DNA from: an uncultured Bacilli bacterium | Lineage (GTDB): Bacteria; Bacillota_I; Bacilli_A; RF39; UBA660 | Length of the DNA stretch: 50,288 nucleotides | Direction: 5' to 3' | NCBI GenBank assembly: GCA_904374795.1 | Contig: CAJFEV010000009.1 | Location: forward strand, 1-50,288 | Part shown: positions 9,264-49,786 of the stretch, piece by piece | How positions within the stretch are numbered: position 1 is the first letter of the stretch | Layout: every line of letters begins with the position of its first letter | The notes under the pieces: generated by a model | The model's input: the letters and a program-made list of their open reading frames with translations, nothing else | Databases searched by the model: none | Told to the model about the DNA's origin: nothing | Translations under genes and position numbers: made by a program

Positions 9264-10718
9264 ATGAAACAAAAGAGAATGTTTGTAGTTATCATATCAT
9301 CTTTAGTCATAATGATTTCTTTGACCTATCAAGGAACGTATTCATATTTTACATCAAGAGTAGAAGGAACAGGAAATATAGAGAATAATCAGTCTCAAGG
9401 TCAAACGAATACATTACAAAATTTGATTATTGGTGAATCGGCGAATGTTGTAAGTAGTAATATGATACCAGGAGATAGTGTTACGTATACATTTACTGTT
9501 CAAAATCCAAATAATATAGAGGTATGTTATAACTTATTATGGAATAATACAACAAATACATTTGTAAATCAAAAAGATTTGCGAGTAACCTTAGCAAAAA
9601 GCGATGGAACCGTATTAGTGAAAGATGCTCAATTTCCTGCAACAACTAGTGGAACTACGATGATATTAGAAGGAACAAGAATCGAAGCTAGCACAACAGA
9701 TACATTTACATTAACTGTAACCTATCAAAATACAGAAGAAGATCAGACAGCAGATATGGGAAAAAGTTTTAGTGGAACCATTATAGGAGAACTAGGGGAA
9801 TGTAAAGTTCCAACTGCTGTAGAAACCATTTTAGCAAAAGGAGAAACAGATGAATTAAAGTTTGATGGAACAGTTGATAACAATTTAAGATATATAGGGT
9901 CTAATCCAAATAATTATGTACAATTCAATAATGAATTATGGAGAGTAATAGGCGTGTTTAATAATATAGATGATGGAACAGGAACAAAAGAGACGAGATT
10001 AAAAATCATAAGAAACGAACCAATAGGAGAATATAGTTGGGATAATAAAGCAAGTGGAACAGGATCATCTACTTCATCATATGGAAGCAATGATTGGAGT
10101 GATAGTGCCTTAAAAATCGTCTTAAATGAAGGCGCATATTGGAATAGAACAAGTGGAGAGTGCCCATATGGACAAAACGGGGCTACAACGTCTTGTGACT
10201 TCAGTACCAATGGATTAACAGAAGAAGCCAAGGCTATGATAAGTAATGCCAAATGGAACTTAGGAGGAACAGCAAGTTATACAAGTAGTAGTAATGGATT
10301 AGCAAGTCATTGGTACACATATGAAAGAGGCACAGAGGTATATAGTGGAAGACCAACAGAATGGATAGGCAAAATAGGACTTATGTATCCAAGTGACTAT
10401 GGATATGCAACAGCAGGAGGAAGTACAACAAATAGAGAAACATGTTTAAAAACAGCATTATATAATTGGGATGGTTCAAGTGTAAGCGATTGCAAAAATA
10501 ACGACTGGTTGTATGATAGTTCAAATTATCAATGGACTTTAACTCCTCATTCCAGGGGTTCAGATGTTGTGTTCTCTGTGGTCAGTGATGGGCACGTCTT
10601 CAGCAGCTTTGCGAGCCGCGCGGACTTTGCTGTTTCCCCCGCCTTATATCTATCCTCTAATGTTAAGATAAGTGGAGGAGATGGGTCTCAAAGTAATCCT
10701 TATCAGTTGAGTCTATAA
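9264..10718 (+). CDS. Secreted protein with SipW-dependent-type signal peptide, TasA-like N-domain and a C-terminal W-x-L-(T/R)-(S/T)-P..V(S/R)PAL domain (DUF6273-like)
   Basis: LTYQGTYSYFTSRVEG signal motif. C-terminus YQWTLTPHSRGSDVVFSVVSDGHV...AVSPALYLSS. Confidence 0.5.
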   Translation: MKQKRMFVVIISSLVIMISLTYQGTYSYFTSRVEGTGNIENNQSQGQTNTLQNLIIGESANVVSSNMIPGDSVTYTFTVQNPNNIEVCYNLLWNNTTNTFVNQKDLRVTLAKSDGTVLVKDAQFPATTSGTTMILEGTRIEASTTDTFTLTVTYQNTEEDQTADMGKSFSGTIIGELGECKVPTAVETILAKGETDELKFDGTVDNNLRYIGSNPNNYVQFNNELWRVIGVFNNIDDGTGTKETRLKIIRNEPIGEYSWDNKASGTGSSTSSYGSNDWSDSALKIVLNEGAYWNRTSGECPYGQNGATTSCDFSTNGLTEEAKAMISNAKWNLGGTASYTSSSNGLASHWYTYERGTEVYSGRPTEWIGKIGLMYPSDYGYATAGGSTTNRETCLKTALYNWDGSSVSDCKNNDWLYDSSNYQWTLTPHSRGSDVVFSVVSDGHVFSSFASRADFAVSPALYLSSNVKISGGDGSQSNPYQLSL

Positions 10719-10804: not shown

Positions 10805-12595
10805 ATGAAAAATGTTTATAAGTTGTTTGGCATTTGGAAACGAATTTTAAAAGTTCAAAAGTTGTATGAAATTGAAAAGAAAGAATGTTATAAGATTGTT
10901 TTAGAAGATTTGATTCAACAAAGAGAAGAAATTTTAAATTGTTTTGAAAAAAATTATATGGCTTTTCATGATGTTGTTAAAAGAATTGAAAAGAAATATG
11001 GGTATACTTTTCAAGGCTCTTTGCTTGCAAATCTGATAACTAATCAGAACTTACCTACTGAAGTATTATTTACCTTTAGTTCTTTACAATCCATTTGGGA
11101 GTTTTTTGAATGCCAGGCTTTTAGTGCATTAAATTTTGAAGAAGCTTTATCTGTTAAAAATATTTCGTATTTTAGAGAGTATATTGAAGCTTTTTTGAGT
11201 TTTAAAAATTGGGAATATCAGGTTAGTCAAACATATTTAGATATGACTTCCACATTAAAAGATTTTTTTTCTCCTTTTGTACAAGCAAATGATAGGTTTA
11301 AAATGCCTATTTTTAAGCAAAATGAAAAATCTTTTGAAATGGAAATGAATGTTTTAAAAAAATTATATAAAAAATTGGTTCAATATAATATTGGAAAAAC
11401 AGAACATGAAGAATTTTTATTGTTATTTGAAGCGTGTTTGAAAAACTTTCCTGAATCTTATTTGATTGATATATGGAACGAATTACAATCTTATTTTTTT
11501 ACATTGGATCTTGCTGATGTTTATGAAAAATATTTTCATGAAGTGAACAGTATATTATTAAAATATAAAGTTGGTTCGTTAGAATATGAAGATTTACAAG
11601 AAGCTGATCTTCAAAATGTTGATTTTAATGGTTTTGAGTATTATCAAAATGTTTTTTTGATGGATATCAGATATTCTTATAAAGATATTGTTAAATATCA
11701 TAATGCTTTTTTACAATTAGAAAATTTGGAACTTCATATTTTACATGTTTATCAACGACTTATGATGTGTAAGTTGCACAGCGAACAAGATACTAAAAAG
11801 TCATTTTATCAGAATGTTTTAAAAAGTTTACTTGAACAAGAAAAAAACTTTTATACATACGTAGATTTTGTGGAATTTCAAAACTATTTACGAATTATTT
11901 ATAATCCGAAGATAAATTATTTTCCATTTATGTTTTTAGATTTACTTCCTAATGGAGATGAGAAGAAAGAAAAAGAATTTGTTTTGCACCGTATGATAAA
12001 TTATGAGATAGATGCTCTTTTCACCACTTTATCTTCTGTATCTTTTTCTGAACCTGGTACTATTCAAGTTCTCGAAGAAATAGAAGTTGAACCTCCTGAT
12101 ATGGAGATGCTTCAAAAATTTTTATTTTCTTTGACTTCGTTTGTTCTTGATAAGATTTCTAAAGATGAATTTTTAAAGGAATTAGAAAAAATAGGTTTCA
12201 ACTTTGAAGAACAATTTGAATATTTAAAAGAAGAACAGATCGCTTTTTTATGGCAATATATAGAAAAGAATTTTTTGAATATTCTTTTAAAAAATGGTGA
12301 ACAAGAGCTTGTTTGGTATTATATGTTTTTTAAAAATAAAGAAATGGAATATTTGGTTCAAAAAGACTTTAATTGTATGTTAACAATAAATGATTCTTTT
12401 AATGCAGTTTTTTATCCTATTCTTCGTAAATTTCTTATTGAAGATCTTCAAAGAACTAAAAAAGAAATATCTAATAGTGATGATGCTAGGAAAAAGAAAT
12501 TGTTTTCTTATTATTTAGAAAGTTGTTTGACTTTTTTCAAAGATAAAGATAAGGCAAAATTTCAAAAAATTCGCGAAATTGTTCGAAAAAAATAA
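10805..12595 (+). CDS. Hypothetical protein (596 aa, helical, acidic)
   Basis: Long uninterrupted ORF with RBS GGGGGAATACT upstream. No motif recognised. Confidence 0.5.
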   Translation: MKNVYKLFGIWKRILKVQKLYEIEKKECYKIVLEDLIQQREEILNCFEKNYMAFHDVVKRIEKKYGYTFQGSLLANLITNQNLPTEVLFTFSSLQSIWEFFECQAFSALNFEEALSVKNISYFREYIEAFLSFKNWEYQVSQTYLDMTSTLKDFFSPFVQANDRFKMPIFKQNEKSFEMEMNVLKKLYKKLVQYNIGKTEHEEFLLLFEACLKNFPESYLIDIWNELQSYFFTLDLADVYEKYFHEVNSILLKYKVGSLEYEDLQEADLQNVDFNGFEYYQNVFLMDIRYSYKDIVKYHNAFLQLENLELHILHVYQRLMMCKLHSEQDTKKSFYQNVLKSLLEQEKNFYTYVDFVEFQNYLRIIYNPKINYFPFMFLDLLPNGDEKKEKEFVLHRMINYEIDALFTTLSSVSFSEPGTIQVLEEIEVEPPDMEMLQKFLFSLTSFVLDKISKDEFLKELEKIGFNFEEQFEYLKEEQIAFLWQYIEKNFLNILLKNGEQELVWYYMFFKNKEMEYLVQKDFNCMLTINDSFNAVFYPILRKFLIEDLQRTKKEISNSDDARKKKLFSYYLESCLTFFKDKDKAKFQKIREIVRKK

Positions 12596-16874: not shown

Positions 16875-17468
16875 ATGAAAACAATTCATTATTTATATAC
16901 TTCGATTTTTTTCTTTTTTTGTTTTTTCTTTTTATCCATTTTTATTATTAATGGGAATACGATTTTTTTTGATGTGCCTTTTTATGAATGGATTAGTCAA
17001 TTTCCTTTAAAGGATTTCTTTATATTTATTACGGATTTTGGGGATACTTTATGGCTTTGTATTTTTATTCTTATTGCATTTTTTATCTTACGAAAAAAAA
17101 GAAACCGAGAACTTTTACTCGGTACAATGGTTGTTGAAACTGTTACGAATTTACTTCTTAAATATTTTTTCGGGAGAGAACGTCCAGGTTTTCCTCATTT
17201 AGTAGAAGCAACAGGCTATTCTTTTCCTAGTGGACATATGATGGCTACTACTTCGTTTTCATTTCTAATGATTTATTTTGTATGGGAAAGTAAACTTCCA
17301 AAAGTTTGGAAAATTTTATTAACTGTTTTATTTATCTTATTCACATTCCTCATTGGTTTAAGTAGAATATATTTAGGCGTTCATTATACAAGTGATGTTC
17401 TTGGAGCTTTTTGTATATCTTTATCTGTTCTTTCTTTTTGTATTTTTTTGTTTCGTTCGCTTAAGTAG
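16875..17468 (+). CDS. PAP2-family phosphatase (undecaprenyl-diphosphatase-like)
   Basis: KYFFGRERP, SFPSGH and SRIYLGVHYTSDV, the three PAP2 acid-phosphatase motifs. Multi-TM. Confidence 0.75.
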   Translation: MKTIHYLYTSIFFFFCFFFLSIFIINGNTIFFDVPFYEWISQFPLKDFFIFITDFGDTLWLCIFILIAFFILRKKRNRELLLGTMVVETVTNLLLKYFFGRERPGFPHLVEATGYSFPSGHMMATTSFSFLMIYFVWESKLPKVWKILLTVLFILFTFLIGLSRIYLGVHYTSDVLGAFCISLSVLSFCIFLFRSLK

Positions 17469-18119: not shown

Positions 18120-18239
18120 TTTTACCTCTTTCTATTTTCTTATTATACTTTTTTGTCAATAAAGAGTCAATAAAACAGATATATGCGCATTCTTTTTCTT
18201 TTTTGGTGTATAATGATTTTAAGGAAGGTAGGCGATTTT

Positions 18240-18635
18240 ATGAAAAAGAAAACTGCTGCAGCATTATTAGGAGGTGCCGCGATTGGAGCTGGATTGGGTA
18301 TTTTGTTTGCTCCAAAAAGTGGTAAGGAAACTAGAGCGGATTTAAAAGAAAAATTAGATGAACTCATAAAACAAGCAAAAGAAGTTGATATGGATGATGT
18401 GAAAGAATATGTTGTTCGTAAATCTGAAGAAATTGAAGCAGCTTTAAAAGACTTAGATAAAGAAAAGGTTTTGAAGATTGCTCAAAAAAAAGCTCAAGAT
18501 ATTCAAAAAAGTGCTAAAGATTTAGTGGATTATGTTAAAGCAAAAGGAGAGCCTATGTTAGAAGAAGCTGCAACTGCTGTGCGAGAAAAAGCTATAGAAG
18601 TTACTAAAGGCGTTTTGAAAAAACTTGAAGGTTAG
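18240..18635 (+). CDS. YtxH-domain protein
   Basis: MKKKTAAALLGGAAIGAGLGILFAPKSGKETRADLKEKL. ATG 18240 with RBS AAGGAAGG and extended -10 TGTGTATAAT upstream. Confidence 0.7.
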   Translation: MKKKTAAALLGGAAIGAGLGILFAPKSGKETRADLKEKLDELIKQAKEVDMDDVKEYVVRKSEEIEAALKDLDKEKVLKIAQKKAQDIQKSAKDLVDYVKAKGEPMLEEAATAVREKAIEVTKGVLKKLEG

Positions 18636-31019: not shown

Positions 31020-31094
31020 GCAGGTGTGGTTCAGTGGCTAGAATGCGACCTTGCCAAGGTTGAGACGGGAGTTCGATTCTCCTCACTTGCTCCA
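31020..31094 (+). tRNA. tRNA-Gly (anticodon GCC)
   Basis: 75 nt folded by hand: acceptor GCAGGTG/CACTTGC, D arm GTTC..GAAT, anticodon stem CGACC/GGTTG with loop TTGCCAA, T arm GGGAG-TTCGATT-CTCCT, discriminator T, encoded CCA. Confidence 0.9.
31049..31094 (+). repeat. attL: 46-bp direct repeat (3' part of tRNA-Gly)
   Basis: CCTTGCCAAGGTTGAGACGGGAGTTCGATTCTCCTCACTTGCTCCA, identical to 49698-49743. The base before each copy differs. Confidence 0.9.
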
Positions 31095-31116
31095 TCGATT
31101 CTCCTCACTTGCTCCA
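31095..31116 (+). repeat. Tandem extra copy of the last 22 nt of the tRNA
   Basis: TCGATTCTCCTCACTTGCTCCA occurs at 31073-31094 and again at 31095-31116. Confidence 0.9.
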
Positions 31117-31152: not shown

Positions 31153-31227
31153 ATGATTTTTTATAAAAAAATACCTGTTTTTTTGCTAAATTTTATCATT
31201 TTTTCCTACTTTTTAGTCCTCGTGTGT

Positions 31228-31240
31228 AAATTGTGTGTAA
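31228..31240 (+). repeat. 13-bp AAATTGTGTGTAA repeat near the left end (partner at 49545-49557)
   Basis: Exact 13-mer in the same orientation near both island ends, within GTGTGT-rich context (CGTGTGTAAATTGTGTGTAACTAATACACAG). Confidence 0.6.
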
Positions 31241-31318
31241 CTAATACACAGTTTTCTTTATTTTTCCAAGAAAAAATGGCAATAAAAAATCCCAAAAGTT
31301 TCATAATTTTTTGGGATA

Positions 31319-32869
31319 TTATCCATCAGGAACTAATAAATTAATTTCTTGATATATTGGTTTAAATCCAACAAAAATAGCTTGTAATTCTTTATCAGTT
31401 AATGTGCTATCAATCGCCGATATCTTGGTGAATATTGGGTAAAGATTACATAAATAATCTTGAAAATATTTAAGATCTTTTGAAAAAGACTCGTCATCTA
31501 TTGGCTTATTAAAAATTTTAATCATAATTTCTTTTAATTGCTTTTGATTTTGAAATCTTCCTACTACAATAGAATATAGTTCATAAACATTGAGACCTAA
31601 AGTATTTCTAAATTCTTGATCAAACTTTTCAGTAAGTTTTCTATCATCATCTAAATTAGTTTGATTATATGTATTTAAGAAAGTTTCAACTTTAGTCCAT
31701 CCACCTCTATTCATTAACGTTTTAAGATTGTTTTCTCCTCGTGCCATAAAAGTATGAGAGGAATGCCTTAGGTTCTTAAGGGGTAAGTTTTGAAAACCTA
31801 ATAAATGAATAAATTTTCTCCATTCCTCAGTAAATCGGGAAGGATCAATAAAAACATTATCATCCCATGAAGTAAAAATAAAATCATCATTTGTTATATA
31901 CCAGCCACAGGCTTCTTTAAATTTTCGATAAAAATCTATCAATTTTAAAGCTTCTGAACTCAGAGCTATTTCCCTATAACTACCTAAAGTTTTTAAGTCT
32001 TTGATAATTAGTTTTCCCGTCAAACGTGATTTTACGATAGCTCTTGATATATTAATAGACATCCTAAATCGATTGATATCCGAGTATTTAATGGCTGCAA
32101 TTTCTTCAATTCGTAAACCTAATTCTAAAAATAAATTTACTAATAATTTAAAGCGAATATTCTTTTTACTAACTTCTCGTAAAACATAGTGCATTTCATC
32201 CAAAATCAAATAATTCTGTTTTTGAGGTTTATAAGATGGTTTGTTATCTATAGAAGTAAATGGATTTGTTTTAATGATTTTTAATTCTTTGCGGTAATAC
32301 TCAAAACTTGAATGCAAAAGAGAATAGGGATTTGTTAAAGTATTTACAGAAATGACACCATCTTTTTTCGTGCTTTTAACTGGTTTAATTTCTCTCATAT
32401 TCTCGACAATTTGTCGTGCCATTTCTTCATCAATATCCACAATTTTTTTATCCAAAATATGAAGTTCTTGAATGTATCTACTTTTAAAACTGAGAATATC
32501 TTTTTCATATGTACTTCTTTCTAAATTCTTCTTTTGTACTTGTATCAATCGATATTCAAAATATTTTTCAAATCCCATTTCTAAAGTCATGCTGTTTTGA
32601 GAGTCTTTAGTTTCTAAAAGTTCTTTTTCTTTTGCATCTATGAAAGCATGGAAGGTTTGCCATTTCCATTTTATAGCTTCTATTAAATCATGAGTAACTT
32701 TAGTTGGTCTTTTAGTACCAAATTTAAGATAAACCCGAAATTTATTAGGAGCTATTTCATAAATTCCTTTTAAATCATTATCTGTAATTCCTAATCGTTT
32801 AGCTTCACTAAATGATATAGAAAAACCTTGTAAAGCCTCTTTAGTAAGAGTTTGTTTGTTACTCGCCAT
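31319..32869 (-). CDS. int: Tyrosine-type site-specific integrase with a ~110-aa C-terminal extension
   Basis: LELGLRIEEIAAIKYSDI (Arg I), NLRHSSHTFMARG (H-x-x-H/R box) and GGWTKVETFLNTYNQ (catalytic Tyr). Lies adjacent to the tRNA att site. Confidence 0.85.
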   Translation of the reverse strand: MASNKQTLTKEALQGFSISFSEAKRLGITDNDLKGIYEIAPNKFRVYLKFGTKRPTKVTHDLIEAIKWKWQTFHAFIDAKEKELLETKDSQNSMTLEMGFEKYFEYRLIQVQKKNLERSTYEKDILSFKSRYIQELHILDKKIVDIDEEMARQIVENMREIKPVKSTKKDGVISVNTLTNPYSLLHSSFEYYRKELKIIKTNPFTSIDNKPSYKPQKQNYLILDEMHYVLREVSKKNIRFKLLVNLFLELGLRIEEIAAIKYSDINRFRMSINISRAIVKSRLTGKLIIKDLKTLGSYREIALSSEALKLIDFYRKFKEACGWYITNDDFIFTSWDDNVFIDPSRFTEEWRKFIHLLGFQNLPLKNLRHSSHTFMARGENNLKTLMNRGGWTKVETFLNTYNQTNLDDDRKLTEKFDQEFRNTLGLNVYELYSIVVGRFQNQKQLKEIMIKIFNKPIDDESFSKDLKYFQDYLCNLYPIFTKISAIDSTLTDKELQAIFVGFKPIYQEINLLVPDG

Positions 32870-36779: not shown

Positions 36780-36806
36780 AACTAACAATTGAAAGGATGT
36801 GTTTTC

Positions 36807-38822
36807 ATGGAAAAACAAAATAGAAAAAAATATCGTAAAGATTTTGGCGTGGATGATAGCCTAAAAAGTAACGAAATTTATATAAGCCAATTTGTTGAAC
36901 TAGAGCAAAACATAACTAGTCAATTAAAAGAAAATACTTCTTTAACTGAAAAGGAAATAAACAATAAAGAGTTTTTAGAAAGAAACATTGGCTCCAAAAA
37001 TGTAACTGTTAATTTAGATTTAATAATTAGGGTAATAGATTCTATATTTCAAGAATATCAAACTAATTATTTAGTTAAGGAAAAATTTAAAACTTTAAAG
37101 GAACTTATAAAATATTTATCAAAAGACATGGAAAAACAAATAATTAAGCAGCTAGAAAGCATTGAAGACAATATATCGCCTAATTTATCTGAAAATGAAA
37201 TATTTTTAAAAAAAATTGAGAACTCTCAAAATGGAATTGGTAACTTAGATTTAATAATTGATATAATAACAGATATCGTAAAATTCAAATCTCAAGAATT
37301 TTCAACAGTATATAAAAGCAAAAACGACGAGATCCGTCAAATTCTAAACAGATTTATAAAATACGCATTGAAAAACACAGAAAATCAGGTAATCGAACAG
37401 TTAAAAAATATCAAAAAAAATACTGCAAATAATTTTTCTGTAAACGAAACAACCTTGAAACAATTTGAAGATTCTCAAAATATAACTGTTAATTTAGATT
37501 TAGTAATTAATACAATAAGAAATACCATAACCCTTAAGTCTCAGAATTTTCAAAGTGAATCTCAAAATAAATATGAAAAAGAAACAATAACCTGTTTTAT
37601 AAACTATATTTTAAAAAATGTTGAAACAAAATTAATTGATCAATTAACGGAAAATGAAAAAAACATTATAGCCAATTTTCCTTATGACAGCCAGTTTTTG
37701 GAAAAACCTACGGATCCTTCAAATATATATACAATTGCGGAAAATGTAATTATCGATGTGGAGGAAATTTTTGAAGAAATAACAAGAATTGGAAAAAATA
37801 TATCTCTAGAGTTTCAAAAAGAATATAAAGTCAAAAATGGAAAAAAATGTGATAATTTATACAGTCTAAAAAAATTTGCGTTGAAAAATATGAACAAAAA
37901 AGTAAATTATTATTATGGAAAATTCATAATAGAGTGGGGTTATCCATATCTTACATCTGTAACAATTGGTAATCACGAAGGCTATAAATCTTTTCTGGAA
38001 GATTGTCTTCTTATATATCATTATTATGATTTGCATAACAAAATATGGGAATATGAAAATTTTTATATAGACGAGGATGAGAATCAAAATCAAAAGGAAT
38101 TTGGTAAAATTCAAAAAGCATGGAACTTTATAAATCCTAAAAACGAGGAAAAATACAACAAATTACATGCTTTTTATTCAATCTTTTCTAATTATAGTTT
38201 TACATCTACAGCATATAATCCACATTTTCATAATCAAGTAAAAAGACTAACTAGCGAAAAACAAACTAATAAAGTTTTAACAAAAGATGAAATAAAGAAT
38301 CAATTATTTTACATGAGAGCAGAACTCATGCAACTAATTGTTAAAAAAATGCAATTGTCAAATATTGATTTATTCGTACTTTACTTACCGATGATTAATA
38401 GAGACACTCAAACATTCAAATATAAAGTTACAGCACAATCTCTGATGGCTATCGCTTATCACAAGTTATTAATAAACTTAACTTCTAAAATATATGGTCC
38501 GCAAAAAATCAAGTGTATTTATTGTGATAACTACATTGAAAAAAGTAATAATAAGAAAATATGTAATGTATGTCAAGAAAAAGGAATTGCTAAAAAGCAA
38601 GCCAGAAAAAAATACGAACAAAAAGCAGATAGAAAAAAGCAGTATGGCAGTCGAGAAAATGCGAAAAAATATCTAAAAGAAATACATGAAAAAGACCCTG
38701 AAAACATTCCAAAGCAACTTGCTAAAGAAATCCAAAAATATGATAACAAAAAAATCAGCTATAAAGATGAAGAACCCTTAAAAAAGATATTAATACAAAT
38801 AAAAAATGAAGAGTCAATGTAG
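36807..38822 (+). CDS. Repeat-containing protein: four ~83-aa internal repeats, an unknown central domain, a C-terminal CxxC..CxxC zinc ribbon and a Lys-rich tail
   Basis: Repeats anchored on N(V/I)TVNLDL(I/V)I..I (three clear copies, one degenerate). CIYCDNYIEKSNNKKICNVCQEK. ATG 36807 with AAAGGA RBS. Confidence 0.55.
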   Translation: MEKQNRKKYRKDFGVDDSLKSNEIYISQFVELEQNITSQLKENTSLTEKEINNKEFLERNIGSKNVTVNLDLIIRVIDSIFQEYQTNYLVKEKFKTLKELIKYLSKDMEKQIIKQLESIEDNISPNLSENEIFLKKIENSQNGIGNLDLIIDIITDIVKFKSQEFSTVYKSKNDEIRQILNRFIKYALKNTENQVIEQLKNIKKNTANNFSVNETTLKQFEDSQNITVNLDLVINTIRNTITLKSQNFQSESQNKYEKETITCFINYILKNVETKLIDQLTENEKNIIANFPYDSQFLEKPTDPSNIYTIAENVIIDVEEIFEEITRIGKNISLEFQKEYKVKNGKKCDNLYSLKKFALKNMNKKVNYYYGKFIIEWGYPYLTSVTIGNHEGYKSFLEDCLLIYHYYDLHNKIWEYENFYIDEDENQNQKEFGKIQKAWNFINPKNEEKYNKLHAFYSIFSNYSFTSTAYNPHFHNQVKRLTSEKQTNKVLTKDEIKNQLFYMRAELMQLIVKKMQLSNIDLFVLYLPMINRDTQTFKYKVTAQSLMAIAYHKLLINLTSKIYGPQKIKCIYCDNYIEKSNNKKICNVCQEKGIAKKQARKKYEQKADRKKQYGSRENAKKYLKEIHEKDPENIPKQLAKEIQKYDNKKISYKDEEPLKKILIQIKNEESM

Positions 38823-38827
38823 ATTCT

Positions 38828-39442
38828 TCATTCTTCATAAATATGGATATTATTGTAACAAGTATTTCGACACTTACCCCATAACCGTGCCATTTCAGAA
38901 AGATTTATAGTACCAGCTTTATATTGTAAATAGTACTTTAAGAACATTGGATCATTTTCCAGTGTTTTTTTCGTTACAATTGGTCTTCCTAACTTGATAC
39001 CTTTTTTAACTGCATTATTTAATCCTAAACGTATTTGAAACTGTTTGACTTTTAAATCGAATGACGAAAAAACTGCTAATATCTGTAACATAGCACTTGT
39101 CATAATATCTAATTCATCTTTTCTACAATCAAAAACTAAAGATCCAACTTCTAAACATAATTTATTATTCTCAACAAAATCCAAAATCTCTAAAAATGTT
39201 TTAAGATTTCTAGCAAGCCTAGTAATATCTGTAGCTACAATTTTAGAAACACCTGGTTTAACAATTTTAAATAATTTATCTAATTCAACTCTTTTATCAA
39301 AATCAACTTTACCTGAAATATACTCAATAAAAATATTTTCTTGTGGAACTCCTTTTCTTATTAACTCTGTAACTTCATACTGTACATCTTGCCTTTGTGT
39401 ACTACATCTAGCAATACCATAAACTTCATTTGTATCATTCAT
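38828..39442 (-). CDS. Small serine recombinase (resolvase/invertase family)
   Basis: YGIARCSTQRQD catalytic-Ser context, IVATDITRLARN, C-terminal HTH INLSEMARLWGKCRNTCYN. ATG 39442 preferred over the track start at 39475. Confidence 0.8.
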   Translation of the reverse strand: MNDTNEVYGIARCSTQRQDVQYEVTELIRKGVPQENIFIEYISGKVDFDKRVELDKLFKIVKPGVSKIVATDITRLARNLKTFLEILDFVENNKLCLEVGSLVFDCRKDELDIMTSAMLQILAVFSSFDLKVKQFQIRLGLNNAVKKGIKLGRPIVTKKTLENDPMFLKYYLQYKAGTINLSEMARLWGKCRNTCYNNIHIYEE

Positions 39443-39464
39443 AAATAGATTTCCTTTCTTTACC

Positions 39465-39505
39465 AAACTGCCCAATAAAACCTCTAAAACATTTATTGAA
39501 CACTT
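39465..39505. repeat. Unit 1 of a direct repeat upstream of the serine recombinase gene (res-like)
   Basis: AAACTGCCCAATAAAAC (39465-39481) and TTGAACACTT (39496-39505) recur at 39550-39566 and 39577-39586. Confidence 0.6.
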
Positions 39506-39627: not shown

Positions 39628-39912
39628 CTATTTTTTAAACTTTAATTCATAATTTTCTATATCATCAAAAACAAATAACTGCTCGACAGGAACATCTAAT
39701 GCTCTTGCAAAACGTTCAACATCCATAATAGTAAAACTTCTATCTAAACCAATAGTCAATAGTTTTTGAATCCGTTTAAAACCTTTTCCTGTTTTACTAG
39801 CAAGAAAATTAATACAATCTTCATAATTGAAAAGGTTGTATTTAGTATTTAAACAATAAAATACTTTAAACGAAATTTTATCTTGTAATTTACTATAATC
39901 TTGAAACTTCAT
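39628..39912 (-). CDS. Small HTH (XRE-like) protein
   Basis: C-terminal FTIMDVERFARALDVPVEQLF resembles XRE-type HTH helices. RBS AAGGAGGG. Confidence 0.45.
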   Translation of the reverse strand: MKFQDYSKLQDKISFKVFYCLNTKYNLFNYEDCINFLASKTGKGFKRIQKLLTIGLDRSFTIMDVERFARALDVPVEQLFVFDDIENYELKFKK

Positions 39913-40130: not shown

Positions 40131-41378
40131 TTATTTATCATAAACACTCTGAAAATCAAATTTATCTAACCGATAGATTTTACCTTTATATTCAGGATAA
40201 CACTTAATAACAGCATCTATAAATCTACCTATGTCTTCACCAGTATTCCAATCACAATACCAATATTGCTTTCCATTAATAGTAATAGGTTCATTATTGT
40301 TTTTAGTAAGACGATAATAATCTTTTCTTGGGTTATTCTTGATTTCTGAATCTGCTATTAAATTTTCCCAAGTACCAGTCGTATGTAAAATATCTTCTGG
40401 TAAATCCGTAAAGAGGAGTATATGTTTTCTAGCAATAATGTCTTTGAAAACAGTATATAAAAAGTCACTATTACCTAAGATGGTATTATTAAATACATTT
40501 TGATGTCTAGTTTTACTAAGAACTAGTGAAATGTTTACTTTTAAATTATCGTCAAGCTGTAACTCCTCTGACATCTTAACTACATTTGTAAGGAAAATAG
40601 TAAATATTGCCTTATTGTTATTATAAAATTGGGCTAATAATTCTTTATCGCTTAGTAAAGCAATCAATGTCTTTTCAAACTTTTTCCACACTTTAATAGT
40701 CAATTCTTTTCCTACATAAGTAATAGGTATTAAAGCGTTATCAATAATATTTTCTTCATACAAACAACTAAAACTTTTGACGTATTCTTCAATAGATAAA
40801 GCCATATTTTTATTTTGCATTTTTAAACTACAAGGTGTATAAATCATATCAATCAAGTCTTGATAAGTGATATGAATGTAGCCATCATCGGATACTTGAT
40901 CCTTATCATCTAATGATAAATAAACATAAATCAATTTGTGACTATTTTTTAATGACTCATCAAGTTCTTCTTTATAACGCTTACATTGTTCATCATGCTC
41001 TAAACTAAATAATTTAGCTTCTAATACAAGTGCATACTGTATAGAGTTTATTTTAAATTCAACAAATAAATCCAATCTTCCAGATGTAATTACCTTTTGA
41101 GTTGATACTTTAATGTCACTTATAGAGTCATTACCTAATAAACCAAGCTCATTAAAAAGCTTAGAATTTTTACAAGCAAGTAACTCAATCAATAATTTTA
41201 ATGGATAACTCCCTAAAGCATAAACATTTTCTTCCTCTAATACAGATGCTAAAAAATTAGCGTGTACATCCTCGTATCTGTAGAATCCTATTTGCCGAAT
41301 AAAATTAGTCCTATTGTAGTAATTCTCAAAATCAATCCATTCTTTACTGTTCTTGAATTTTAAAATTTCATAATTCAT
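40131..41378 (-). CDS. PD-(D/E)XK nuclease family protein (PDDEXK_4-like N-domain) with a ~200-aa uncharacterised C-terminal domain
   Basis: YEDVHANFLASVLEE (compare E..HS.FLAWLL) and GRLDLFVEF...YALVLEAKLFSLEHDEQCKRYKEEL (the D..E-x-K core followed by Q..RY). Confidence 0.6.
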   Translation of the reverse strand: MNYEILKFKNSKEWIDFENYYNRTNFIRQIGFYRYEDVHANFLASVLEEENVYALGSYPLKLLIELLACKNSKLFNELGLLGNDSISDIKVSTQKVITSGRLDLFVEFKINSIQYALVLEAKLFSLEHDEQCKRYKEELDESLKNSHKLIYVYLSLDDKDQVSDDGYIHITYQDLIDMIYTPCSLKMQNKNMALSIEEYVKSFSCLYEENIIDNALIPITYVGKELTIKVWKKFEKTLIALLSDKELLAQFYNNNKAIFTIFLTNVVKMSEELQLDDNLKVNISLVLSKTRHQNVFNNTILGNSDFLYTVFKDIIARKHILLFTDLPEDILHTTGTWENLIADSEIKNNPRKDYYRLTKNNNEPITINGKQYWYCDWNTGEDIGRFIDAVIKCYPEYKGKIYRLDKFDFQSVYDK

Positions 41379-41396
41379 ACTTTCACCTCTAGTGTT

Positions 41397-41447
41397 AGAG
41401 TATCATACTTAGAGTATTTTATCAAGCGCTTAGAGTGTAATTTACAC
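41397..41447 (-). promoter_or_regulatory. Promoter TTGATA-N17-(TGA)TACTCT with palindrome GTGTAA-T-TTACAC 9 bp upstream of the -35
   Basis: Plus-strand coordinates: -10 at 41397-41402, -35 at 41420-41425, palindrome at 41435-41447. Three ACTCTAA repeats overlap the promoter. The RBS AGAGGTGA ends the module just before ATG 41378. Confidence 0.5.
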
Positions 41448-41567
41448 ATTTTAAAGAAATTTTGAAATTAATTGTTTAAACACACAATATTAGAGAGTGT
41501 GAGACGATTTGAGCCACATGTGAACCATTTAATAAAAGAGAGAATATTACCATACCATAACTTATAA

Positions 41568-41595
41568 TAAAGAAAAAATGACACAAAGTTGTGCC
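41568..41595 (-). terminator. Terminator at the upstream edge of repeat copy 1
   Basis: Minus strand GGCACA-ACTT-TGTGTC followed by ATTTTTTCTTTA. Lies 19 nt after the stop of the 113-aa gene. Confidence 0.5.
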
Positions 41596-41613
41596 AATTT
41601 ATTTTTATACTTG

Positions 41614-41955
41614 TTAAGCATATAAATTTTTCAATACTTCAATACAATTGTTGTCTTTATCACACAGTATTTCTAAATAGTCATCCCAAGTGTATACTCT
41701 TTGATTTTTTTCTATAATATTTACTGAAGTATGTTGACCAATTAATGCTTCAATTTCTGAAAGAGTTTTTCCAACAAAATTTTTACCATGAATTAAATCA
41801 TATCTTTGTTGATTTTGTTTTCTAACATTTAAATATCTTAAAATAGTAAAAAGACCACCTATAGCAAATCCTAACATAATTGGATTAACGTACATATTTA
41901 AGCTATTTAAAAGAAAATAGATGACTACTATTACTATTATAATTGCAAATCCCAT
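41614..41955 (-). CDS. Two-TM membrane protein with a soluble C-terminal domain
   Basis: MGFAIIIVIVVIYFLL and PIMLGFAIGGLFTIL helices. No known motif. Confidence 0.5.
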   Translation of the reverse strand: MGFAIIIVIVVIYFLLNSLNMYVNPIMLGFAIGGLFTILRYLNVRKQNQQRYDLIHGKNFVGKTLSEIEALIGQHTSVNIIEKNQRVYTWDDYLEILCDKDNNCIEVLKNLYA

Positions 41956-42001
41956 AATACACTCTCCTCAATTTTTATGAAAAATATCATTATGTTAATT
42001 T

Positions 42002-42121
42002 TCAAAAAAGCCGAAAAACACAATAAATGATAGATAATAAAAGAAGTATTGTAACTATTACTCCCACAACACTTGGTTTATCGTCATTACTATTATTTTT
42101 TCTTTCTACGATTTTTGCCAC
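42002..42121 (-). CDS. Possible 39-aa single-TM peptide (GTG start) filling the gap between the 94-aa and 113-aa genes
   Basis: GGAGGG RBS 6 nt upstream of GTG 42121. Peptide VAKIVERKNNSNDDKPSVVGVIVTILLLLSIIYCVFRLF. Below the ORF-track cutoff. Confidence 0.25.
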   Translation of the reverse strand: MAKIVERKNNSNDDKPSVVGVIVTILLLLSIIYCVFRLF

Positions 42122-42390
42122 CACTGTCCCTCCAATCCAAAATATCCTTCTTTTAAAGCTCTCAACCAATTTGTATTAAACTTTAATTCTACAACATCTT
42201 CCTTTGATAATTCTGATAACTCAATTTCATGAGATTTCCCACTAGCACTTTTTAATTGAACAATGTGATCTTCGTCCGAAAGTTCCAAAGTAACCTTTTT
42301 TGTGCCTCTTACTTTTCGTTCTAACTCACCATCCACATAAATTTTATATGCCTCCATCGGTTGCACATCAGCAGAAATTTTTAATATCAT
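42106..42390 (-). CDS. Hypothetical 94-aa protein
   Basis: RBS GAAAGGAG. First full gene downstream of repeat copy 2. Confidence 0.5.
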   Translation of the reverse strand: MILKISADVQPMEAYKIYVDGELERKVRGTKKVTLELSDEDHIVQLKSASGKSHEIELSELSKEDVVELKFNTNWLRALKEGYFGLEGQWWQKS

Positions 42391-42475
42391 TTAATATACT
42401 CCTTTCTAACTTCTTTTTATAAATCAAAATTATTTAACAATAATTGATTTTTCATTTTCTACTACCTCTAGTGTT

Positions 42476-42526
42476 AGATTATCATACTTAGAGTATTTTA
42501 TCAAGCACTTAGAGTGTAATTTACAC
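42476..42526 (-). promoter_or_regulatory. Second copy of the palindrome-N9-TTGATA-N17 promoter (-10 TAATCT)
   Basis: Palindrome at 42514-42526, -35 at 42499-42504, -10 at 42476-42481. Confidence 0.5.
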
Positions 42527-42646
42527 ATTTTAAAGAAATTTTGAAATTAATTGTTTAAACACACAATATTAGAGAGTGTGAGACGATTTGAACCACATGT
42601 GAACCATTTAATAAAAGAGAGAATATTACCATACCATAACTTATAA

Positions 42647-42673
42647 TAAAGAAAAAATGACACAAGTTGTGCC
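42647..42673 (-). terminator. Terminator at the upstream edge of repeat copy 2
   Basis: Minus strand GGCACA-ACT-TGTGTC followed by a T-tract, 4 nt after the stop of the 164-aa gene. Confidence 0.5.
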
Positions 42674-42676
42674 AAT

Positions 42677-43171
42677 TTATTTTTCTTGAATAAATAAGTG
42701 AATAAATTCGTCAGCAAAAGAATTATAATTATTTTTATTCAATTCTCTACAACCACAAATAATAGTTTTTCCATGTTGCTTTAATTGATTTATAAAATAA
42801 TCCTTTTCACTAATAATATCTATATTATCTATAATAACGACATCATAATCTAAATTTTCTAAATTCAGCTCCTTAAAAGTCTCAATACTATCTACAATTC
42901 TAAGAGTGTCAGGAACATTACCATAAGAATATAGGTTATATCTTTTTATAAAACCTGCTTCATCTTGATATAAACTTAAAAACAAAATTGATTGTTCCTC
43001 ATCTGTAAGTAATTTTATAATTTTATATAATAATGGTATTAACCCCGAATTTTCATTAGAATAAATAGTAAGCATATAACTTTCATTTGATTTTATTTTT
43101 TTAAGCTGATTGGTAGTAAAATTGAACTCTCCTATATCATGAGCTTCCAATTCATATATCTTTTTGTCCAT
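42677..43171 (-). CDS. Hypothetical protein, possibly a degenerate RecA/DnaB-fold domain lacking a Walker A lysine
   Basis: YDVVIIDNIDII looks like a Walker B strand. The expected P-loop position reads SNENSGLI. Confidence 0.35.
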   Translation of the reverse strand: MDKKIYELEAHDIGEFNFTTNQLKKIKSNESYMLTIYSNENSGLIPLLYKIIKLLTDEEQSILFLSLYQDEAGFIKRYNLYSYGNVPDTLRIVDSIETFKELNLENLDYDVVIIDNIDIISEKDYFINQLKQHGKTIICGCRELNKNNYNSFADEFIHLFIQEK

Positions 43172-44439: not shown

Positions 44440-44663
44440 CAAGATATAGTAGATATTAAATTATAATCAAATTCATCTTTCGGAATTTGATATAATATTC
44501 CAATCTTTTTTGCTTCATCTTCATTCTCAACTTAATTTGAATTTCTAATAGAAATGGAAACCGCAATAACTATGATAATCATGATAGCAACTACAAACAT
44601 TACTAAGTAATGCCAATATCTTCTAAACATATTTTTCGTTTTTGCTCTGATTGACTGTTTCAT
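44440..44663 (-). pseudogene. Truncated paralogue of the N-terminus of the 384-aa thioredoxin-like gene
   Basis: ATG 44663, TM peptide MKQSIRAKTKNMFRRYWHYLVMFVVAIMIIIVIAVSISIRNSN, TAA at 44534-44532, then in-frame VENEDEAKKIGILYQIPKDEFDYNLIS. This aligns with VEQEETKIGTLYKFSPEEFDYNLLS of the downstream gene. Confidence 0.45.
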
Positions 44664-45042: not shown

Positions 45043-45083
45043 TTCACTCACACCCTTCAATAGCATTTGTATACTACAAGTAT

Positions 45084-45135
45084 ATAGTAACATACCTGTA
45101 GTATACATTCAACCACTTTGAGTGTAATTTTACAT
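45084..45135 (-). promoter_or_regulatory. Promoter TTGAAT-N17-TACTAT with palindrome GTGTAA-TT-TTACAT 9 bp upstream of the -35; divergent XRE/lipoprotein control region
   Basis: -10 at 45084-45089, -35 at 45107-45112, palindrome at 45122-45135. An extra 10-bp inverted repeat GTATACTACA (45069-45078) / TGTAGTATAC (45097-45106) brackets the -10. Confidence 0.5.
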
Positions 45136-45170
45136 CATTTCAAGTTGTTAAAATTAAATTGGTGATGAAA

Positions 45171-45548
45171 ATGGTTATAAACGATAAAGAAAATTACAAT
45201 AAAGTGAAAGATTCTATTTCTATGGATAATTTAAAAAATATCATTAAAAGTAAAGGATATTCACCAATTAAGGTAGCGATGGAATCAAAAATAAGTAGTT
45301 CCACAATCAATGCCTATATGAATGGGCAAAAGTTACCAAGTGTTACAACATTAGTAAGTATGGCAAACTTTTTAGATTGTAACTTAGATTTTCTATTAGG
45401 AAGAACGGATATTCCAACAAAAATTGATGCAATAGAGAATATCAATAAAAACCCCAAATTAGCTTTATTGTTTCAAAATATATCTTCTTTGCCGAAGGAT
45501 AAACAAGAATTAGTCGAAGCATATGTAAAAGGATTGATGGATAGATAA
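45171..45548 (+). CDS. XRE-family HTH transcriptional regulator
   Basis: LKNIIKSKGYSPIKVAMESKISSSTINAYMNGQKLPSVTTLVSMANFLDCNLDFLLGRTD. Start uncertain (TTG 45159, ATG 45165 or ATG 45171). Confidence 0.75.
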   Translation: MVINDKENYNKVKDSISMDNLKNIIKSKGYSPIKVAMESKISSSTINAYMNGQKLPSVTTLVSMANFLDCNLDFLLGRTDIPTKIDAIENINKNPKLALLFQNISSLPKDKQELVEAYVKGLMDR

Positions 45549-49488: not shown

Positions 49489-49544
49489 GAGGCATAAAAT
49501 TAACACCTCAAGTGTAATTAAAAAATAACATAAAAAGTGTGTGC

Positions 49545-49557
49545 AAATTGTGTGTAA
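49545..49557 (+). repeat. 13-bp AAATTGTGTGTAA repeat near the right end (partner at 31228-31240)
   Basis: Context AGTGTGTGCAAATTGTGTGTAATTGTGTTCAA. Confidence 0.6.
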
Positions 49558-49697
49558 TTGTGTTCAATTTATTATGAACTTTCATGTTTTTTTGAACAAT
49601 TTGACTCTGAATTTGAAGAAAAAAGATATGACTAATTTTTTAAGGATTTATCGTGCTTCATGAGGAATTTTTGTGCTAATTTTTTCAAAAAATAAGT

Positions 49698-49743
49698 GCC
49701 TTGCCAAGGTTGAGACGGGAGTTCGATTCTCCTCACTTGCTCC
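49698..49743 (+). repeat. attR: 46-bp copy of the tRNA-Gly 3' part
   Basis: Identical to 31049-31094. Confidence 0.9.
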
Positions 49744-49786
49744 AGTGACGTTTCTGTTCGAACTTTTATAGTTTGAACTTAACATA

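Follow-up and report, generated by a model that had tools for sequence, protein, structure and literature searches.

A duplicated 222-bp putative regulatory module bounds exchangeable cargo genes in a small tRNA-integrated element of uncultured Bacilli

Within an 18.65-kb element that sits in tRNA-Gly of an uncultured Bacilli/"Tenericutes" host from chicken gut, two direct copies of a putative regulatory module enclose a block of small genes in the accessory region, and closely related elements carry unrelated genes at the same place, with the boundaries of homology falling inside the module. We consider it likely that a single explanation accounts for these observations, namely that a regulatory region descending from the element's own early promoter was duplicated, that it insulates the cargo blocks behind it, and that its sequence supplies the homology by which cargo is exchanged. 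The window referred to throughout is the whole analysed stretch of DNA, 50,288 nucleotides long, and the landmarks of the element within it are as follows:

31049..31094, plus strand: attL, the 3' part of tRNA-Gly(GCC), a 46-nt direct repeat
49699-49744: attR, the second copy of the 46-nt direct repeat
31319-32869: tyrosine integrase, adjoining the tRNA att site
38828-39475: serine resolvase/invertase, 215 aa
45171..45548, plus strand: XRE-family HTH regulator, 125 aa from the ATG at 45171, candidate binder of the palindromes described below

The element encodes an integrase, a helicase, a RecA-like protein, a resolvase, the XRE regulator, DnaB_2, PcfJ and PcfK. A search for phage structural or virion genes within the att-bounded 18.65 kb found none, and the PHROGs matches of the element comprised regulators and an invertase only. 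It may represent a satellite or a mobilisable island.

The original prediction of two direct repeats of about 98% identity was borne out by repeat search, MAFFT and BLAST, which agreed on copies of 222 and 221 nt in direct orientation, 1079 nt apart from start to start and separated by three substitutions and one 1-nt indel (98.2% identity, BLAST E 1e-114). A 42-nt core of the module matched twice, against zero matches expected from shuffles. The gene arrangement claimed around the copies was also recovered: copy 1 is fused directly to the PD-(D/E)XK nuclease gene, ending 6 nt before its ATG (41378), and reading of the open reading frames (ORFs) places a 12-codon ORF and then the 94-aa, 39-aa and 113-aa set behind copy 2. 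The copies and their neighbours, in coordinate order, are:

40131..41378, minus strand: 415-aa PD-(D/E)XK (PDDEXK_4) nuclease, matching the PADLOC defence candidate PDC-S26
41385..41606, minus strand: module copy 1, 222 nt, in the interval leading from cassette A to the PDDEXK_4 nuclease gene
41614..42390, minus strand: cargo of cassette A as a whole
41614-41955, minus strand: 113-aa TM protein of cassette A
42002-42121, minus strand: 39-aa TM peptide of cassette A, GTG start
42106-42390, minus strand: 94-aa ORF of cassette A
42417..42455, minus strand: 12-codon mini-ORF (MKNQLLLNNFDL, then stop), directly after the ribosome-binding site (RBS) of copy 2
42464..42684, minus strand: module copy 2, 221 nt, in the interval leading from the 164-aa gene to cassette A
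42677..43171, minus strand: conserved 164-aa backbone gene, upstream of copy 2

Family searches with the 94-, 39- and 113-aa proteins of cassette A gave no confident match, and the composition of the cassette gave no sign of foreignness relative to its flanks (GC 0.267 versus 0.27). The two-copy structure is no assembly artefact of the window, because more than 20 metagenome contigs, from varied samples and varied assemblers, show the same arrangement in independent assemblies. In sister elements, the four sites by which copies 1 and 2 of the window differ are redistributed between the copies, which agrees with gene conversion; short-read metagenome assembly chimeras could be an alternative source of this pattern. 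The two copies in one sister element (L009) are only about 85% alike.

Comparison with related islands confirmed that the genes behind the module differ. Four alternative inserts occupy the interval from the 164-aa gene to the nuclease gene, and among sister elements whose nuclease is at least 97% identical there are at least four different inserts:

Allele A, in the window and more than 20 contigs: 12-codon ORF plus proteins of 94, 39 and 113 aa
Allele B, in L009 and L010: 35-aa ORF plus a 355-aa coiled-coil/TM protein
B-like variant, in L008: cargo only 66% identical
Allele C, in L022-L024: 107-aa zinc-ribbon membrane protein with its own predicted promoter and terminator
Allele D, in L004: different sequence upstream of the 3' part of the module

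The genes flanking the inserts are 90-99% identical, whereas the inserts themselves are unrelated, and in every pairwise comparison the homology to the window both ends and restarts within the module. Against L009 it stops exactly where copy 2 ends on its 3' side, at 42463, and restarts at 41575 (module position about 32); against L022 it stops at 42507 (position 178) and restarts at 41471 (position 136); and against L004 it restarts at 41492. Because all homology breakpoints fall within the module, the proposed cargo hotspot is supported, and the insert alleles contradict the opposite expectation of a module without variable cargo. Allele boundaries thus fall inside the module, and we infer homologous recombination as the mechanism of cargo exchange. 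Recombination between the two resident copies might also delete the cassette. No allele lacking a cassette or amplifying it in tandem was seen in roughly 70 contigs from three neighbourhood look-ups, and contigs of four DNA runs, searched for deletion or duplication variants, showed no more than breaks of the graph at the borders of the repeat and a single spurious 21-nt joint.

Such a pattern might instead be read as site-specific recombination, with the module or its palindrome core of about 44 nt serving as an integron- or res-like site for the serine resolvase or the tyrosine integrase. Direct repeats do flank a cassette; every allele has the roughly 44 nt around the palindrome (positions 135-178) at either side, and no other stretch is shared in this way; the module holds short CACA/TGTG-based palindromes (CACATGTG, CACAC-N11-GTGTG and GTGTAAATTACAC); a resolvase gene lies 1.9 kb downstream; and TGTGTAAATT recurs in repeats near the att ends of the element. 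The breakpoints, however, vary by allele (positions about 32, 115, 136, 178 and 222) and define no single crossover point, and the identity around allele A spans 222 nt including terminator and RBS, which fits homology-driven exchange. Moreover, no copy of the palindrome adjoins the resolvase gene, the three-subsite architecture of a res site is missing, promoters accompany the cassettes, which sets them apart from those of integrons, and the same resolvase is conserved in relatives without the module. We therefore regard a site-specific mechanism as highly improbable. Only if it were true would a new mechanism be at hand: a small integrative element of uncultured Bacilli would then capture cassettes in an integron-like manner, each of them automatically standing behind a copy of the element's regulator-controlled early promoter.

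The internal organisation of the module was read on the minus strand. Its candidate features are:

41579..41596, minus strand: terminator-like hairpin of copy 1, 7-bp stem and 4-nt loop, then TTTTTTCTTT
42658..42674, minus strand: terminator-like hairpin of copy 2, 7-bp stem and 3-nt loop, then TTTTTTCTTT
41522-41515 (copy 1) and 42601-42594 (copy 2), minus strand: CACATGTG box
41435..41447, no strand assigned: palindrome GTGTAA-A-TTACAC of copy 1, candidate operator
42514..42526, no strand assigned: palindrome GTGTAA-A-TTACAC of copy 2, candidate operator
41397..41425, minus strand: candidate promoter of copy 1, -35 TTGATA (41425-41420), N17 with TATG-A, -10 TACTCT (41402-41397)
42476..42504, minus strand: candidate promoter of copy 2, -35 TTGATA (42504-42499), N17 ending in TATG-A, -10 TAATCT (42481-42476)

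The terminator hairpin claimed for each copy is present at both sites as TGGCACAAC(T)TTGTGTCA followed by a T-run, and that of copy 2 appears in both the MFE and the centroid fold. Terminator-like sites number four in 6 kb against 1.2 expected, and the module copies hold two of the four. The hairpin with its T-run occurs in both window copies and in the upstream copy of L022; the copies of L009 and L008, like the short downstream ones of alleles C and D, have a degenerate hairpin or none. The box after CACATGTG reads CTCAAATCGTCTCA in copy 1 versus TTCAAATCGTCTCA in copy 2. Each copy contains a palindrome GTGTAAATTACAC (41447-41435 and 42526-42514), which is invariant across all module copies and equally distant from the -35 box in both window copies; in copy 2 it ends 9 nt upstream of that box, with its centre at about -51. 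Among the module copies compared, the core TTTCTTTAAAATGTGTAAATTACACTCTAAG ... AACACTAGAGGT is nearly invariant.

A TTGATA-N17 promoter is likewise predicted in both copies, with TACTCT or TAATCT as its -10 box, giving a consensus of TTGATA-N17-TAMTCT with a TRTG (TRTGn) -16 motif, and the RBS takes the form AGAGGT in each. Three ACTCTAA repeats had been proposed per copy; copy 1 has all three, whereas copy 2 has two, its third reading AATCTAA. An iteron or origin role for these repeats was set aside, as the 7-mers are short and their equal spacing in a third copy of the promoter region is plain homology. The layout of -35 box, 17-nt spacer, TGn and -10 box and the interval from it to the RBS are the same in every copy, the third one included, and also in L015 and L020. 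The predicted start lies only about 3-6 nt ahead of the Shine-Dalgarno sequence, an unusually short distance. A second possible extended -10 sequence (TATGGTAATAT, module positions about 55-66), just 3' of the terminator and conserved in all long module copies, could be the real promoter or an additional one. Metatranscriptome (Logan) contigs were too sparse to reveal transcription starts: they gave fragmentary gene coverage at a depth of 3-6, possibly from DNA, and the repeat collapsed into its own unitig.

That possible extended -10, together with the hairpin-forming CACAC-N11-GTGTG and GTGTAAATTACAC sequences, could also suggest that the conserved 150 nt upstream of the RBS form a transcribed cis-regulatory leader or a small RNA, such as a riboswitch, an attenuator or an antitermination site. 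We give this reading hardly any credence, since Rfam returned no match for 41300-42800 even at E <= 1, the folding energy is ordinary (z = -0.98 and -0.93 on the two strands), no reading frame is conserved between alleles, and the downstream copies of alleles C and D, which lack this part, still precede an intact nuclease gene. A structured RNA in general was rejected, as only tRNA was found at Rfam gathering thresholds and folding z-scores were about -1; a coding role for the module was rejected as well, as the short ORFs across it change frame between alleles.

The origin of the module is indicated by one further feature of the window:

45083..45161, minus strand: third copy, diverged and corresponding to module positions 132-211, located in the intergenic region from which the XRE gene and the leftward operon diverge

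This copy contains TGTAA-AA-TTACA, a -35 box TTGAAT (45112-45107), an N17 spacer with TATG-T and a -10 box TACTAT (45089-45084), and its local alignment score against the module, 46, was reached by none of 1000 shuffles (maximum 33). Its TGTAA-AA-TTACA lies 40 nt from the XRE start codon. Homologues of the nuclease with 58-68% identity are encoded by the first gene divergent from the XRE gene in three distant relatives (L020, L021 and L044); because the nuclease is the first gene at the early promoter there, the module is a duplicated early-promoter region. Allele B points the same way: the 35-aa ORF behind the L009 module has its homologue in the N-terminus that the first early-promoter gene of L013-L015 encodes, and this 35-aa remnant occupies the place of the 12-codon mini-ORF of allele A. 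The third-copy promoter is itself a mosaic boundary, as positions 1-67 of L009 match it (45136-45070) and then lead into a different first gene. Comparison thus shows that the predicted operator-promoter-RBS part of the module descends from the element's leftward early promoter, back-to-back with the XRE gene. There would therefore be three such promoters, heading three consecutive gene blocks: the lipoprotein gene to the 164-aa gene, cassette A, and the nuclease with the genes after it. One regulator may act on all three through the palindrome they have in common, although this is not assured, because the half-sites are 2 nt apart in the third copy rather than 1 nt as in the module copies. 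Across the sequence, TGTGTAA occurs 13 times in 50 kb, eight of them inside the element, which is suggestive at most of a binding motif.

These data also bear on a simpler account, in which the repeat is a mere recent segmental duplication or a by-product of insertion, and the inserts arrived by illegitimate recombination in a tolerant intergenic region. Since insertions leave genes unbroken solely in intergenic DNA, a clustering of boundaries there would be expected in any case; allele A is stable and dominant, and all long contigs encoding the exact 164-aa or 113-aa protein show it in an identical context; and the absence of a deletion allele among the contigs fits this account. Inserts A and B, however, each have a long stretch of one and the same sequence at either end (222 nt and about 190 nt), the third promoter copy likewise marks a boundary, the copy-distinguishing variants are reshuffled, and the truncated 5' piece of a foreign first early-promoter gene in allele B is the footprint of promoter-region recombination rather than of chance insertion. 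On balance we hold duplication without homology-driven exchange to be unlikely.

The favoured explanation can be set out as a sequence of proposed steps. The 222-bp unit would combine the terminator of the upstream unit, a conserved spacer of about 110 nt, a palindromic operator, a sigma-A-type promoter and an RBS, and each copy would stop transcription of the preceding block and restart it for the next, so that each cargo block would be an insulated, self-expressed, moron-like unit. The shared module sequence would act as a portable stretch of homology: by recombining with each other, the module copies of different elements would swap or add cargo and leave the module duplicated on both sides, and a Campbell-type insertion of a circle with one module copy may be an alternative route. 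The copied early promoter would then play a double role, as expression signal for each cargo block and as homology for exchange. As the natural alleles illustrate, a small integrative element of an uncultured gut lineage can swap accessory genes, among them a candidate anti-phage nuclease and membrane ORFans, while its backbone stays undisturbed.

The module is confined to one narrow lineage. Distant-mode blastn against PLSDB plasmids and INPHARED phages gave no module match, nor did the GTDB representative genomes, and exact-core scans of IMG/VR returned nothing apart from chance 16-mers; in JGI metagenomes one contig matched, again with allele A. Within this element lineage the 87-nt core can serve as a landmark for locating cargo sites.

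Several known systems share parts of this organisation. Integron cassettes are alike in their array position and in the exchange of unrelated small cargo between repeated sequence elements; unlike them, the present cassettes have their own promoter and variable boundaries, with no adjacent IntI-type integrase and no attC structure. An integron cassette array was rejected, the sole tyrosine integrase lying 8.5 kb away by the tRNA att site; so was attC, the module repeats being long direct duplications rather than imperfect attC hairpins, and so was a res site of the serine resolvase, whose gene lies 1.9 kb and 3 kb from the copies, with variable breakpoints. Lambdoid phages carry conserved boundary ("linker") sequences at module junctions as well as cI/Cro-type operator-promoter regions; these belong to the modular theory of Susskind and Botstein and are reportedly treated by Clark et al. 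2001 for HK620. As with such linkers, the present module places short shared regulatory sequences at gene-block borders as homology for exchange, and as with cI/Cro regions, a divergent promoter region next to an XRE/cI-type HTH gene contains a palindrome, which is repeated at promoters. Unlike cI/Cro operators, the palindrome of the module is situated upstream of the -35 box, so it need not repress the leftward promoters; the XRE protein is its candidate binder.

The closest known analogues are phage morons and the PeSL regulatory cassettes of T4-type phages. Morons are transcription units of their own, inserted among conserved genes (Cumby et al. 2012, PMC3594210). Cassette A and allele C are likewise short, non-essential ORFan blocks with a predicted promoter in front and a predicted terminator behind, those limits being supplied for cassette A by the copy 2 promoter and the copy 1 terminator; cassette A adjoins a regulatory region, and some close relatives have it while others (L009, L022) carry unrelated units in its place. 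Morons usually have a promoter each of their own, whereas the promoter here is a copy of the element's early promoter; they often differ in base composition, whereas cassette A matches its flanks; and no phage structural genes are seen in the 18.65 kb of the present carrier.

Shuffling of this kind among close relatives of the T4 type is mediated by PeSL (promoter-early stem-loop) composite promoter/terminator motifs (Arbiol et al. 2010, PMC2839356; Comeau et al. 2014, PMC4122927). PeSLs and the module alike are intergenic repeats in which the stop codon of the upstream gene and a stem-loop terminator precede a sigma-70-type promoter, a Shine-Dalgarno sequence and a start codon; in the module the promoter, Shine-Dalgarno and start codon are recognised at the level of sequence, and the terminator-like hairpin occurs in only part of the copies. 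Both stand before ORFans in a hyperplastic region, both bound insertions or replacements among close relatives (here four insert alleles), and for both, recombination between copies is the proposed driver. PeSLs number about 50 per phage, compared with two full copies and one diverged copy here, and the PeSL hairpin lies within the promoter, whereas that of the module lies about 150 nt upstream of it. Unlike a PeSL, the module is 222 nt long, with a candidate palindromic operator common to the repressor-adjacent promoter; the two have no sequence relationship. Lytic myoviruses host PeSLs; the module is an analogue and not a member of the PeSL class, because its carrier is a small tRNA-Gly-integrated element of uncultured Bacilli and no T4-type phage. 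The module thus looks like the T4-type phage regulatory cassettes rather than a new kind of system, and it would extend the PeSL and moron principle beyond large lytic phages and lambdoid prophages.

The repeat unit at this locus, where the minus strand is the coding strand for all genes, is present as two nearly identical direct repeats, with a diverged third copy of its putative operator-promoter part located by local alignment:

41385-41606, minus strand: module copy 1, a 222-nt direct repeat
41596-41579, minus strand: terminator-like 7-bp hairpin with T-run in copy 1, from the terminator scan
42464-42684, minus strand: module copy 2, a 221-nt direct repeat
42674-42658, minus strand: terminator-like 7-bp hairpin with T-run in copy 2, from the same scan
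45083-45161: diverged third copy, corresponding to module positions 132-211, in the intergenic spacer that separates the XRE gene from the leftward operon

Copies 1 and 2, with a start-to-start spacing of 1079 nt, are 98.2% identical (three substitutions and one 1-base indel; BLAST E about 1e-114), and a 42-nt core occurs exactly twice against zero occurrences expected from shuffles. More than 20 metagenome contigs show the two-copy arrangement in independent assemblies, and the ending of shorter related contigs (L004-L006) within the repeat is expected of a real repeat. Read on the minus strand, each copy opens with the final bases and stop codon of the preceding gene and continues with the hairpin (the module hairpins are two of the four terminator sites in 6 kb), CACATGTG, (C/T)TCAAATCGTCTCA, a CACAC-N11-GTGTG inverted repeat, and the palindrome GTGTAA-A-TTACAC, with TTGATA 9 nt downstream. 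The 17-nt spacer that follows ends in TATG-A, a match to the TRTGn "-16" motif that is typical of promoters in low-GC Gram-positive bacteria, and the next hexamer, TACTCT in copy 1 and TAATCT in copy 2, is followed by AACACTAGAGGT in each. Copy 1 leads after 6 nt into the ATG of a 415-aa PDDEXK_4 protein, and copy 2 leads into a 12-codon ORF and then the 94-, 39-, and 113-aa ORFs. By repeat alignment, minus-strand reading, and the terminator scan, the original prediction had described the module accurately, save that its three ACTCTAA per copy fail for copy 2, whose third is AATCTAA.

Comparison with related contigs (L-numbered) supports the proposal of a cargo hotspot behind the module, as unrelated genes follow it in related elements and the breakpoints fall within it. 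The sisters compared have flanking DNA 90-99.5% identical to the window and a nuclease at least 97% identical where full-length (L022-L024, L004), and close sisters differ in the segment between the 164-aa gene upstream of copy 2 and the nuclease:

Allele A: the window's cassette; window, L001-L003, L007, L011, L025-L043
Allele B: 35-aa ORF and 355-aa coiled-coil/TM protein; L009, L010, with module copies at L009 1866-2049 and 3348-3549
Allele C: 107-aa zinc-ribbon membrane protein, accompanied by a predicted promoter of its own, a terminator, and 400 non-coding nt; L022-L024
Allele D: different sequence 5' of module positions about 115-222; L004

The upstream copy of allele C comprises module positions 1-178 and the downstream copy 135-221 only; L008 has a B-like variant, with cargo of only 66% identity although its 164-aa gene is 90% identical. 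Homology to the window is lost at 42463 and regained at 41575, lost at 42507 and regained at 41471, and regained at 41492, always within the module, and L009 carries a different first gene directly past the third promoter copy. A functionless duplication joined by random intergenic insertions is disfavoured, since the third copy is a boundary too and the footprint of allele B is a promoter plus a truncated gene. The module might instead be a site-specific recombination site, given that about 44 nt around the palindrome are common to both sides in all alleles, but this reading is also disfavoured: breakpoints vary, identity extends over 222 nt, the motif does not occur near the resolvase gene, and relatives that lack the module have the same resolvase. 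Nothing supports a structured RNA: Rfam gave no hit, folding z-scores are about -1, and functional-looking downstream copies lack the part concerned. Some of the cargo genes have distant homologues elsewhere in more distant elements, which makes a shared accessory pool their source. The nuclease (40131-41378, minus strand) has a PADLOC match to the phage-defence candidate PDC-S26 (E 1.6e-16); the remaining cargo gave no confident family match.

The nuclease is pseudogenised in L009 and L010 by internal deletion or frameshift, and the 164-aa gene there has an in-frame stop. The related contig L015 contains 100% identical direct repeats of at least 300 nt (16913-17212 and 18218-18517, spacing 1305 nt), and L013 has the same pair (10232-10531 and 11537-11836); each repeat is the 5' part of one of the tandem zinc-ribbon membrane-protein paralogues (3-4 copies), and the 107-aa cargo of allele C is a member of that family.

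The 23 full-length module copies taken from allele-A elements differ at only six alignment columns. In sister elements, the states by which the window's copies 1 and 2 can be told apart are reshuffled; for instance, L027 has the upstream haplotype in its downstream copy, and mosaics occur in L003 and L028. This pattern is suggestive of gene conversion, and chimeras of short-read metagenome assembly could also produce it. The two copies of L009 are only about 85% alike, each being nearer to the window's copies than to its partner, which indicates that near-identity in the window reflects a recent event or homogenisation and not a general constraint. Recombination would be the mechanism behind cargo exchange; it may also take place between the resident copies, and no cassette-less allele was found among the related contigs read.

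The third copy keeps the order of the module, with TGTAA-AA-TTACA, the same 9-nt gap, TTGAAT, an N17 spacer with TATG-T, and TACTAT. Its local alignment score against the module is 46, compared with maxima of 33 in 1000 dinucleotide shuffles and 31 across all the element's other windows. In L020, L021, and L044, whose nucleases are 58-68% identical, the nuclease is the first gene divergent from the XRE gene, and a promoter of the same geometry precedes it. The equivalent promoter of L015 (PcfJ 54% identical), CTTGATTA-N-TAATAT-AG-CACTAGAGGTGA, precedes the gene for a 270-aa protein whose N-terminus is homologous to the 35-aa ORF after the L009 module. Together, the divergent nuclease position, the L015 promoter, and this homology tie the module to the early promoter. 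Judged from these sequence comparisons, the module's predicted operator, promoter, and RBS are the early promoter that lies beside the repressor in this element family, and the window's element carries this putative promoter three times, one heading each gene block. Adjoining the XRE start, AATTTTAACAACT(T/A)GAA occurs at 45140-45160 and at equivalent sites in L015, L020, L021, and L044, a conservation kept at protein identities of only 54-68%; its XRE-strand reading, TGTTAAAAT, is an extended -10 and probably the XRE promoter.

The promoters assigned to both copies are predicted, and each putative start lies only a few bases 5' of the Shine-Dalgarno sequence, a geometry that is equally tight in L015 and L020; close to its 5' end, the module has an extended -10 (TATGGTAATAT) as an alternative. 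Metatranscriptomes yielded pieces of the region in four runs, only as low-depth Logan contigs, of which a leftward contig ends at 45061 and an XRE contig starts at 45286; this gap agrees with divergent promoters without counting as evidence for them. The palindrome is upstream of the -35 box, centred at about -51, and may act as an operator of the leftward promoters with either sign of effect. In the third copy it overlaps the likely XRE -35 region, with the conserved TGTTAAAAT on the other strand, making XRE autoregulation through this palindrome plausible.

The carrier is an 18.65-kb integrated element bounded by direct repeats of 46 nt that equal the tRNA-Gly(GCC) 3' part (31049-31094 and 49699-49744). 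It encodes a tyrosine integrase, a RecA-like ATPase, a DnaB_C helicase, a 677-aa ORFan, a serine resolvase/invertase, the PDDEXK_4 nuclease, the cassette, 164-aa and 384-aa proteins, a lipoprotein, an opposite-strand XRE-family HTH regulator, and DnaB_2, PcfJ, and PcfK proteins; no virion or conjugation genes were seen in it. The element is common in chicken-gut metagenomes, and the MAGs that contain its relatives carry the label uncultured Bacilli or Tenericutes. GC content stays at 27-29% throughout, and composition does not distinguish the cassette from its surroundings. An extra tandem 22-nt copy (TCGATTCTCCTCACTTGCTCCA) immediately after the tRNA (31095-31116) may be a scar of earlier integration or excision. 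Just within both ends, GTGTGTAAATTGTGTGTAA-like direct repeats (about 31221-31243 and 49540-49565) could serve the integrase or an excisionase as arm-type sites, and they share TGTGTAAATT with the module palindrome. The ORFan (36789-38822, plus strand) contains three or more internal repeats, each about 100 aa long, with the motif N-x-T-V-N-L-D-L-I-I and no match in Pfam, PHROGs, or PADLOC; sisters L022 and L027 carry a 230-aa HTH_28 protein in its position. Downstream of the nuclease, a 94-aa protein (39628-39912, minus strand) with an XRE-like HTH C-terminal tail (ARALDVPVEQLF) is a possible second DNA-binding regulator, and its L009 counterpart is split into two ORFs. After the lipoprotein gene, a 43-aa ORF (44451-44663, minus strand) is a 5' remnant of a 509-aa DUF2207 gene (L022 2659-4188; 87% identity over the first 71 aa), and the intact gene in sisters L022 and L023 indicates a deletion in the window's element; a chromosomal DUF2207-like homologue lies at 116-982.

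Of the phenomena described so far, the PeSL cassettes of T4-type phages are the closest; they repeat a stop codon, stem-loop terminator, sigma-70 promoter, Shine-Dalgarno sequence, and start codon, sit in hyperplastic regions where they bound insertions or replacements separating close relatives, and are able to recombine into mini-circles (PMC2839356, PMC4122927). Cassettes A and C, with their predicted promoters and terminators, also fit the definition of morons, which are independent transcription units that spread horizontally (PMC3594210). Here, by contrast, the module is carried by a small, tRNA-integrated element of uncultured Bacilli that does not look like a phage; it has few copies and is longer, and its repeated unit copies the promoter beside the element's regulator, palindrome included. 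The module would be an analogue of PeSLs by mechanism and not a sequence relative.
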